A DNA stretch of 19,366 nucleotides, taken from positions 1 to 19,366 of the forward strand of contig CAXHJY010000632.1 in assembly GCA_964016885.1 (NCBI GenBank). Reading direction: 5' to 3'. The notes beneath the pieces were generated by a model. It was not told where the DNA came from. It saw only the letters and a list, made by a program, of their open reading frames with translations, and did not search any database. The stretch is from Eledone cirrhosa. Its lineage: Eukaryota. Shown one piece after another: positions 16,966 to 18,796 of this stretch. Made by a program: the position numbers and the translations under genes. Each line of letters opens with the position of its first letter. Within the stretch, counting starts at the first letter, position 1.

Positions 16966-17140
16966 TTATCGACCCCCTAAGGATGAAAGCAAAGTTAACC
17001 TCGGCGCGATTTCAACTTTATGATGTGAGTTCAAATCCCGCCGAGGTTAACTTTGCCTTTCATCCTTACGGGGTCGATAAAAGGAAGTACCAGTAATGCA
17101 CTGAGTAATTGCTGGCCTTGTGCCAACAGTAGAAACAATT
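16966..17140 (+). mobile_element. 5'-truncated SINE with an inverted 5' duplication (arms 16966-17017 and 17028-17080)
   Basis: ttatcgaccccctaaggatgaaagcaaagttaacctcggcgcgatttcaact is the near-perfect reverse complement of agttcaaatcccgccgaggttaactttgcctttcatccttacggggtcgataa. The plus copy continues to the normal SINE end agtagaaacaatt. Confidence 0.85.
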
Positions 17141-17238
17141 ATATATATATATATATATATATATATATATATATAGTGTTTAATATAGAAATGACCTCTA
17201 CAGGACTGGAACTGTTTCAATTTATATTCAATATATAT

Positions 17239-17454
17239 ATATTAGAAAGTGAAGTTTTTTTTACAAAATGAAAAATAACCGAGGTGTCCTACACGAGTGA
17301 AAGTATAAAGAAAAAAAGATGAAATCGAAAATGCAACTGGAGTCTTATTTAAAAAAAAATATATATATTTATTTGGTTCCTTTACTGGTTTCGCAGTTCT
17401 TCTGCTTTTCAAAAGTAGAGTTGAGATGGAGGGTCTGTGGTTTTTCTCACATCT
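17239..17454 (-). mobile_element. ~215-bp hammerhead-bearing element, copy B
   Basis: Reverse complement of 2983-3198 with a few substitutions. Confidence 0.8.
17379..17416 (-). ncRNA. Minimal hammerhead motif, copy B (slightly mutated)
   Basis: Minus strand aCTT-TTGAAAA-GCAG aagaa CTGC-GAAA-CcaG-TA-AAGg. Loop III palindrome is lost (CCAG instead of CCGG) and stem I is 3 bp. Confidence 0.6.
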
Positions 17455-17457
17455 GTG

Positions 17458-17575
17458 AGATGGGAGAAAAGCCGCAGAAGAACTGCGAAACCGGTAAAGG
17501 AACCAAATAAATATATATATATTTTTTTAAATAAGACTCCAGTTGCATTTTCGTTTTCATCTTTTTTTATTTATA
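17458..17575 (+). mobile_element. Copy C of the same element, head-to-head with copy B, with a 33-bp internal deletion and 3' truncation
   Basis: agatgggagaaaagccgcag|aagaactgcgaaaccggtaaaggaacc... lacks the segment equivalent to 3001-3033. Separated from copy B by a 3-nt spacer (gtg, 17455-57). Confidence 0.8.
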
Positions 17576-17624
17576 TATATATATATACGATATTAAATAA
17601 ATGGAAACTATATTTATAAAACCA

Positions 17625-17699
17625 TATTTATTTCATTATATATATTTCAGGGATATCATATTAACAATATGTTATGCCTTCCTCAGACAAAATACAATA
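17625..17699 (-). ncRNA. Type I hammerhead ribozyme motif (left arm of the palindrome)
   Basis: Mirror copy of 17843-17917. Here the base of stem II is AGG/CCT, fully Watson-Crick. Predicted cleavage after 17637 on the minus strand. Confidence 0.65.
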
Positions 17700-17842
17700 T
17701 AGACAGTTTTATAGATAAATAGATTTGACATACCGTTCAACATCGACTTGTATTTGAAAAAGTTGATTTGCCAAATCAACTTTTTCAAATACAAGTCGAT
17801 GTTGAACGGTATGTCAAATCTATTTATCTATAAAACTGTCTA

Positions 17843-17917
17843 TATTGTATTTTGTCTGAGGAAGGCATAACATATTGTTAATATGATATCTCTGAAATAT
17901 ATATAATGAAATAAATA
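17843..17917 (+). ncRNA. Type I hammerhead ribozyme motif (right arm of the palindrome)
   Basis: Stem I TATTgTATTTTGT/ATGAAATA-AATA; CTGAGGA (17856-62); long stem II AGGcATAaCATATT-gtt-AATATGaTATcTCT; GAAA (17894-97); palindromic ATATATAT stem/loop III; predicted cleavage after AUA (17905); overlapping AATAAA. Confidence 0.65.
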
Positions 17918-18069
17918 TGGTTTTATAAATATAGTTTCCATTTATTTAATATCGTAAATATACTCCAAATACTTGTTGAGTGCTTTTATATCAGTTATAA
18001 ATATTTACTAGTTGTAACCCAACAATTTAAATATAACTTTCCATATATATATATATATATATATATTTT

Positions 18070-18196
18070 ATATAGAAATGGCTTCTACAGGACTAGAACT
18101 GTTTCATTCGAAGAGGAAATTATCAGGAAAGCCTTGATTTCTTGATGATTTCCTTCGAATGAAATATTTCTAGTCCTGTAGAAGCCATTTCTATAT
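18070..18196. repeat. ~127-bp imperfect fold-back (arms ~60 bp, ~7-nt loop)
   Basis: atatagaaatggcttctacaggactagaa...ttctagtcctgtagaagccatttctatat. The outer 29 bp pair perfectly, and the inner part has mismatches and a 2-nt indel. Confidence 0.92.
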
Positions 18197-18510
18197 TAAA
18201 TATTTATACTCTGCTATGTATTGAGTACATTACCCCTGATTGCAACTGTGATACACATACACACACACATGTATATATATATGCTTAGATACACATACAG
18301 ACAAAGAAACAGACACAACAGAGAAATAAAATTAAGTATACAATTGCGAAAATTCATATCATAGAAACAACGAATACGAGAAGGAAGGGATTTGATCGAT
18401 GTAGAAATTTTTAAATTCTTTAACTGATTTAGAGGCAACATTTTAGAATAATGCATCAGTTGTAGTTATATAGAATGGTATATAAACCTGCTGTGGAAGA
18501 TATAGATTGG

Positions 18511-18796
18511 TCGCAGTATGGGGTCGTAGGGCGGAAATCAAGTCATCGTTTAAAGGAATTGTTGCATGCTAGGATATGATTATAAAAAATAAAATAAAAT
18601 ATCAGAAATTGGAAAATTTGGACATTTAATGACAGTGAAACACCACTATATATATATATAGTGGTGTTTCACTGTCATTAAATGTCCAAATTTTCCAATC
18701 TCTGATATTTTATTTTATTTTTTATAATCATATCCTAGCATGCAACAATTCCTTTAAACGATGACTTGATTTCCGCTCTACGACCCCATACTGCGA
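18511..18796. repeat. 286-bp near-perfect palindrome centred on (TA)7 (18647-18660)
   Basis: Paired positions sum to 37307. Arms are 136 bp of complex sequence, with mismatches at 18530/18777 and 18607/18700. Confidence 0.97.

Follow-up and report, generated by a model that had tools for sequence, protein, structure and literature searches.

The window (the whole stretch of DNA analysed, 19,366 nt from the octopus Eledone cirrhosa) is an entire unplaced 19 kb contig of a 3.0 Gb assembly; it consists for the most part of TA-rich simple repeat, and no gene was seen on it. Five palindromes (P1 to P5) lie within 1.83 kb of it, and the question they raise is whether one mobile system produced them all. 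An earlier note had attributed the five to a single non-autonomous ribozyme system. This attribution is not supported, since P2, P3 and P4 belong to elements bearing reverse transcriptase (RT) and endonuclease, and P1 and P5 lack a ribozyme. P2 to P4 are very probably head-to-head, one-tailed end pieces of Penelope-like elements (PLEs) within TA repeats, likely formed by two-strand nicking and copying of a leader RNA, with P1 and P5 as separate fold-backs.

Palindromes and hammerhead motifs

Alignment of the locus with its own reverse complement recovered all five inverted duplications described earlier (Table 1). The limits given for them were correct for the palindromic parts, but the one-sided tails of P2, P3 and P4 had been overlooked. 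The arms of P3 differ at 1 position and those of P5 by 2 transitions. An isolated P4-family fragment, the sixth piece of the cluster, had not been listed. Elsewhere in the window, positions 7240-7861 comprise two copies of the SINE and, after them, three tandem units of 107 bp built of the SINE 3' part. Positions 643-790 hold another repeat, which has a CTGATGA core at 670 (+), recurs in many of the fetched loci and is probably a further PLE end.

Table 1. Features of the palindrome cluster, in window coordinates
Feature	Positions	Strand	Remarks
P1, palindrome	16966-17080		102/117 columns identical to own reverse complement
P1 short arm, inverted B-box region of a tRNA-type SINE	16966-17017	-	end ~40 nt beyond anchor motif
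P1 long arm, 5'-truncated SINE reaching the SINE 3' end	17018-17139	+	no hammerhead
(TA)18 tract	17140-17175
Lone tail-less P4-family fragment	about 17176-17232	-	3' half of hammerhead; 81-93% identity to P4 loci
P2, palindrome	17304-17575		230/279 columns identical to own reverse complement
P2 tailed arm, Neptune/Nematis-like PLE end	17243-17455	-	tail 17243-17303; hammerhead 17412, U3-A8 core
P2 tail-less arm	17456-17575	+	internal deletion took first half of hammerhead core
P3, palindrome	17586-17956		368/371 columns identical to own reverse complement
P3 tail-less arm, Hydra-like PLE end	17586-17771	-	complete hammerhead motif 17686
P3 tailed arm	17772-18044	+	complete hammerhead motif 17856; tail 17957-18044
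(TA)n tract	18045-18074
P4, palindrome	18070-18196		112/129 columns identical to own reverse complement
P4 tail-less arm, end of a second, older Hydra-like PLE family	18070-18133	-	damaged core (C3-A8) 18126
P4 tailed arm	18134-18255	+	damaged core (U3-G8) 18142; tail 18197-18255
P5, palindrome	18511-18796		282/286 columns identical to own reverse complement
Single-copy DNA, last 136 nt (18511-18646) being the P5 left arm	18318-18646	+
(TA)7, P5 centre	18647-18660
P5 right arm, inverted duplicate of 18511-18646	18661-18796	-	2 transitions; TA-rich array then to contig end

Hammerheads had been claimed for several of the palindromes. A descriptor that required a paired 3:8 core called complete motifs in just three of the six arms of P2 to P4, namely the left arm of P2 and the two arms of P3. 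The right P2 arm is missing the initial half of the core, stems I to III persist in both P4 arms around an unpaired 3:8 core, and the descriptor scan found no hammerhead in P1 or P5. The descriptor is weak genome-wide (14 matches in 400 kb versus 0-7 in shuffles), and an Rfam scan of the window at E up to 10 gave no hammerhead match, only sub-gathering hairpin and microsatellite look-alikes.

The second part of the claim, a fixed outward polarity wherever a motif exists, was borne out, and copies across the genome agree with it. The three cases at this locus would by themselves share their polarity by chance one time in four. In control sequence (forty evenly spaced 10 kb stretches, 400 kb), a loose core is retained in 6 of 28 palindromes and faces outward in all six. 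The subfamilies of P4 differ on both sides of stem I, and the P3 core is variable at the free position 7 (66 copies, obtained with a retrieval pattern that fixed the other core letters). The type I hammerhead thus appears, from these comparisons, to be a family-level feature of the P2, P3 and P4 pseudo-LTRs, with putative cleavage. The U3-A8 core of P2 is that reported for the Cercyon elements of Schistosoma (PMC4209133). A relative of the P2 hammerhead, likewise with a U3-A8 core, with a different yet pairing stem II and with GCAA replacing GAAA, occurs at L023:236-311 and L250:9547-9640.

Pseudo-LTR ends of Penelope-like elements

The first genome-wide look gave 121 candidate copies of P3, 936 of P2 and 2305 of P4; 40 per family were scored and 30 fetched. 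Dispersed copies thus exist for P2, P3 and P4 and are absent for P5, which is single-copy. The fetched copies stop at the palindrome edge or 59-88 nt beyond it and are followed by (TA)n or (CA)n. Long copies of P3 contain ORFs with RWR, DKT and RDD motifs, a CxCx5C linker and a C-terminal endonuclease. Pfam and PDB sequence searches with these Hydra-like ORFs returned nothing; their language-model neighbours (0.95-0.98) carry HTH_animal, RVT_1 and GIY-YIG in 20-100% of members. Long copies of P2 show GxKF, DKG, a Cx4CxxC linker and GIY-YIG, the last of which was found by Pfam above the cut-off (1.1e-6), with RVT_1 below it (3.3e-4).

For P4 the link to coding sequence consists of degenerate remnants, 29-55% identical to the P3 protein and too decayed for motifs. 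In L170 and L212 the remnant of an endonuclease is followed in turn by 3' UTR, body, hammerhead and tail; L210 keeps remnants of both RT and endonuclease, and on its 5' side lies an inverted P4 end that lacks the tail. Of the 14 long P2 and P4 loci fetched, 8 belong to P4, and none of these showed a sense PLE ORF reaching 130 aa. Frameshifts or stops interrupt every long copy examined, and no intact donor is among them. The pseudo-LTR with its tail directly precedes the ORF start, and the pseudo-LTR flanks the ORF at both ends, for P2 in L164 and for P3 in L096; P4 was seen only at the 3' position. PLEs with RT and GIY-YIG that match the arms, the partners anticipated earlier, were accordingly found as long copies for P2 and P3 and as degenerate remnants for P4. 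Judged by their sequence, P2, P3 and P4 are the pseudo-LTR ends of three PLE families whose long copies carry RT and GIY-YIG sequence.

As to clades, P3 and P4 appear Hydra-like and P2 Neptune/Nematis-like. The P3 ORFs carry DKT, the CxCx5C linker and an RWR variant of the RWK-type motif, and their target is (TA)n. With the Hydra clade as described in PMC8557442 the P3 donor shares DKT, this linker, CxxC and CxH around the endonuclease end, the C-terminal GIY-YIG, the hammerhead and (TA)n insertion; it differs in having RWR for RWK and a length of ~4 kb, with a long low-complexity 3' UTR, as against <3 kb, and the placement is one by motifs. The Cx2-5CxxC linker before the C-terminal GIY-YIG of P2 is common to Neptune and Nematis and hence not decisive; P2 may go with either clade, as motifs do not tell the two apart. 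None of the freely accessible papers searched describes these three families from octopus; the supplements of PMC8557442 may list them.

Two reading frames came to light in the long loci. The Neptune-like element of L164 has a 306-aa N-terminal frame (1468-2385) before the RT region, with no clear Pfam family. Near Hydra-like remnants, L213:5646-6881 holds an intronless 412-aa frame, which by eye we take to be RhoGAP-like and possibly a retrocopy.

Among all fetched loci outside the window, pairs within 400 bp number 62 head-to-head and 2 tail-to-tail; in 56 of the 62, one arm alone carries a tail. The P2 contribution is biased upward because most of the 29 P2 pairs come from a query that included the fold region. 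With single-arm queries, and with the window's own loci and 3 duplicate loci dropped, an inverted partner was found within 1.6 kb in 14 of 26 P3 loci (in 3 of which the inversion lies mostly in the tail) and in 20 of 29 P4 loci. Together with the six outward-facing control palindromes, the pair counts show that motif polarity is not random. The PLE origin, TA targeting and head-to-head integration surmised earlier are borne out for P2 to P4 by the long copies, the pair counts and the TA flanks; the (TA)n flanks hide any target-site duplication. Most P2 and P4 stubs also have their 5' end some 30 nt past a TATA motif. The P2 tailed arm begins 29 nt past the TATA motif of long copies, and in the bystander sets, which include the window's own arms, 12 of 22 P2 copies begin at +29 to +34 and 39 of 50 P4 copies at +30 to +39 from this motif; bystander copies of P3 gave no peak 30 nt after the P3 TATA motif.

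The head-to-head layout with a single tail, TA targeting and hammerheads on opposite strands are already published for PLEs. Insertions of endonuclease-bearing PLEs (PMC3846280; PMC8557442, legend of Fig. 2) share with P2 to P4 the head-to-head inverted copy, a tail at one end, the pseudo-LTR hammerhead and microsatellite targets; they differ in that the inserts here measure only 190-460 bp, that the tails are 59-88 nt long versus 30-40, and that three families lie within 1 kb. The former source describes an inverted pseudo-LTR with an optional tail, head-to-head being commonest, and proposes self-priming instead of two-strand priming. Pairs of opposite-strand hammerheads 100-700 bp apart, with a U3-A8 core and low cleavage activity, are reported in PMC4209133.

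The following course would explain the stubs. The PLE enzyme would nick both DNA strands, and only a short RNA leader would be copied onto both ends. Reverse transcription may start at two internal sites, at the tail end and at the core end, as extrapolated from a lizard PLE in vitro; with both nicked ends primed within the leader, both cDNAs would run to the RNA 5' end and then join, leaving an outward-facing palindrome with one tail. TA remaining on both sides of each insertion would invite the next, so that stubs would cluster. On AT-rich DNA the lizard protein cuts both strands and extends them, with ATT as the cut site; reverse transcription begins at two internal sites bounding the tail, and hammerhead cleavage is not needed (PMC11167929). 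That protein stems from a Poseidon element studied in vitro, whereas P2 to P4 belong to other clades. The stub ends would mark the two start sites of reverse transcription and, for two families, likely the RNA start; they fit the sole in vitro PLE study and would extend it to Hydra-like and Neptune-like elements.

Alternatively, the palindromes might constitute a dedicated retrozyme-like system, in which short non-autonomous hairpin units are moved by PLE enzymes. Short stubs greatly outnumber long copies (the 936 candidates for the P2 end compare with 36 for the segment directly upstream), the junction of the internal deletion in the P2 tail-less arm recurs identically in L059, and short leader RNAs of solo pseudo-LTRs could serve as templates in trans. 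We nevertheless consider such a system quite improbable, as the arms contain nothing beyond stretches of the autonomous pseudo-LTR, their junctions vary from copy to copy, and P1 and P5 contain no ribozyme. Moreover, most P2 and P4 stubs start downstream of the TATA motif and are therefore without a promoter of their own. Non-LTR retrozymes (bioRxiv 10.64898/2026.07.22.740005) resemble the stubs in being non-coding, in their type I hammerhead and in their relation to PLE pseudo-LTRs. They are described as direct tandem arrays whose every unit contains a hammerhead, whereas P2 to P4 are inverted pairs, and no tandem hammerhead array of this kind was seen in the window.

Fold-backs of SINE and single-copy DNA

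The SINE motif of P1 occurs 114,645 times in the genome. ARAGORN found no tRNA gene; A and B boxes were read by eye in the fuller SINE copies at 7240-7460. Exact head-to-head SINE pairs 15-45 nt apart were found at 107 sites, roughly threefold more than the ~34 that uniform placement would give. By eye, 49 of 50 listed spacers consist of SINE sequence, so these sites look like single events. Among 15 fetched SINE loci, both arms reach or come near the end in 5, and one locus joins two subfamilies. Of 6 loci scored for target duplications, 3 show clear ones of 17-18 nt. In three of the 15 (L218, L222 and L225) the inversion runs ~18-60 nt into the host flank, which points to DNA-templated snap-back. 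P1 itself would be a SINE insertion inverted, probably, by twin priming or by snap-back of the cDNA during ordinary LINE-type integration.

The threefold excess of head-to-head sites, AT-rich target duplications of 10-18 nt in 5 SINE loci and the ATT cutting of the lizard PLE would all suit mobilisation of the SINE by PLE proteins, P1 then having arisen by the mechanism of P2 to P4. This is highly improbable in our judgement: fold-backs account for ~0.2% of SINE motif matches as against half or more of PLE stubs, the end of the short arm varies (in 9 of the 15 loci it lies 17-49 nt beyond the start of the motif) with no fixed tail boundary, the inversion enters host DNA in the three loci named above, and the SINE has no hammerhead. 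SINE fold-backs are rare and variable, unlike the PLE pattern.

P5 differs from both. Its left arm runs on from unique DNA and its right arm stops at the TA array. An arm search, an arm-plus-flank search and a search with an exact 28-mer, the last of which unlike the DNA searches does not pass over common words, matched this locus only. Nothing that resembles coding sequence emerged when P5 and its flank were translated in six frames. Of the 28 palindromes in control sequence, 4 are likewise non-repeated and centred on a microsatellite. Taking P1 and P5 as separate events, P5 would likely be a local duplication of host DNA at a break, primed by a self-folding (TA)n end that was extended over 136 nt. 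Fold-back inverted duplications have been described from yeast (PMC11724301) and from sites of L1 insertion, with TA/AT priming in one case (bioRxiv 10.1101/2024.12.14.628481). As described there, these are short inverted duplications from a self-annealed 3' end, which fits P5 and the flank-copying SINE cases; they come from yeast and human cells, and most yeast events measure 5-34 bp versus 136 nt for the P5 arm.

The fold-backs, P5 above all, could also be artefacts of library preparation or assembly in a small TA-rich contig that forms the whole window. Contigs over the locus came from 4 of the 19 listed runs; unique parts reach a depth of about 1.5-2.4 in one of these four, and no piece spans the locus. 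One contig of run X1, which may be the source of the assembly, covers 18366-18668 without a mismatch at depth 2.4 and is too short rightward to bridge the P5 centre; under a 31-letter rule no read bridges it, and the genome searches yielded no second copy of P5. Against this, the same architectures, with diverged arms and exact tail asymmetry, occur on chromosome-scale contigs, the arms of P3 and P5 are not identical, and four P5-like palindromes are present in control sequence. As a general account, artefact therefore has a very remote chance; for P1 to P4 the chance is negligible, and P5 is unlikely, though less strikingly so, to have arisen in this way.

A MITE or Foldback DNA transposon as the source of P2 to P4 was rejected on account of the asymmetric tails, the variable centres and the RT-linked long copies.

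RNA folding and palindrome density

In read-through RNA the ribozyme arm would pair with the antisense arm, and long dsRNA and self-cleavage would therefore be alternatives. The earlier note had expected both from one transcript; by prediction, the P3 hairpin (-280.7 kcal/mol) would far outweigh the isolated hammerhead fold (about -1), so that the two would compete. Exceptional dsRNA potential and hyper-editing are reported for octopus, as is heavy editing of the lizard Penelope (PMC5625713); octopus was outside the repeat-annotation analysis of that paper. Extrapolation from the 400 kb gives ~200,000 palindromes, or 1.5% of the genome. As a tentative and rather doubtful proposal, head-to-head PLE stubs might be the main source of the long, almost perfect dsRNA and extreme A-to-I hyper-editing reported in octopus, and PLE nicking at (TA)n might also fold back host DNA, as in P5, and so act as a general palindrome generator. 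If the genome-wide palindrome load does feed hyper-editing, a retroelement mechanism would be tied to a known cephalopod trait.

The control sequence contains 28 palindromes totalling 6,036 bp, of which 24 are members of repeated families; 24 are flanked on one side by TA no more than 40 nt away. At least three palindromes fall within 1.83 kb in 3 of the 40 stretches, and four do so in one of them; the same detector, run on the locus, found four of its five, P2 being missed through masking. To speak of a hotspot, as had been done, was thus an overstatement, and the cluster falls towards the upper end of normal density. The P2, P3 and P4 families adjoin one another at other loci too. The locus is likely an already known kind of PLE footprint, beside which P1 and P5 are probably separate fold-back accidents; in itself it is repeat debris on a small contig, and its value is that of a clear example of PLE stubs.

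The commonest control palindrome belongs to a very abundant family that bears a tail on one side and lacks a standard hammerhead core (L237:5771-5893, L252, L257, L258, L260 and L266); this family has matches in ~40 fetched loci. At L247:8843-9119, a non-repeated 47-bp unit undergoes several flips of orientation between TA tracts.
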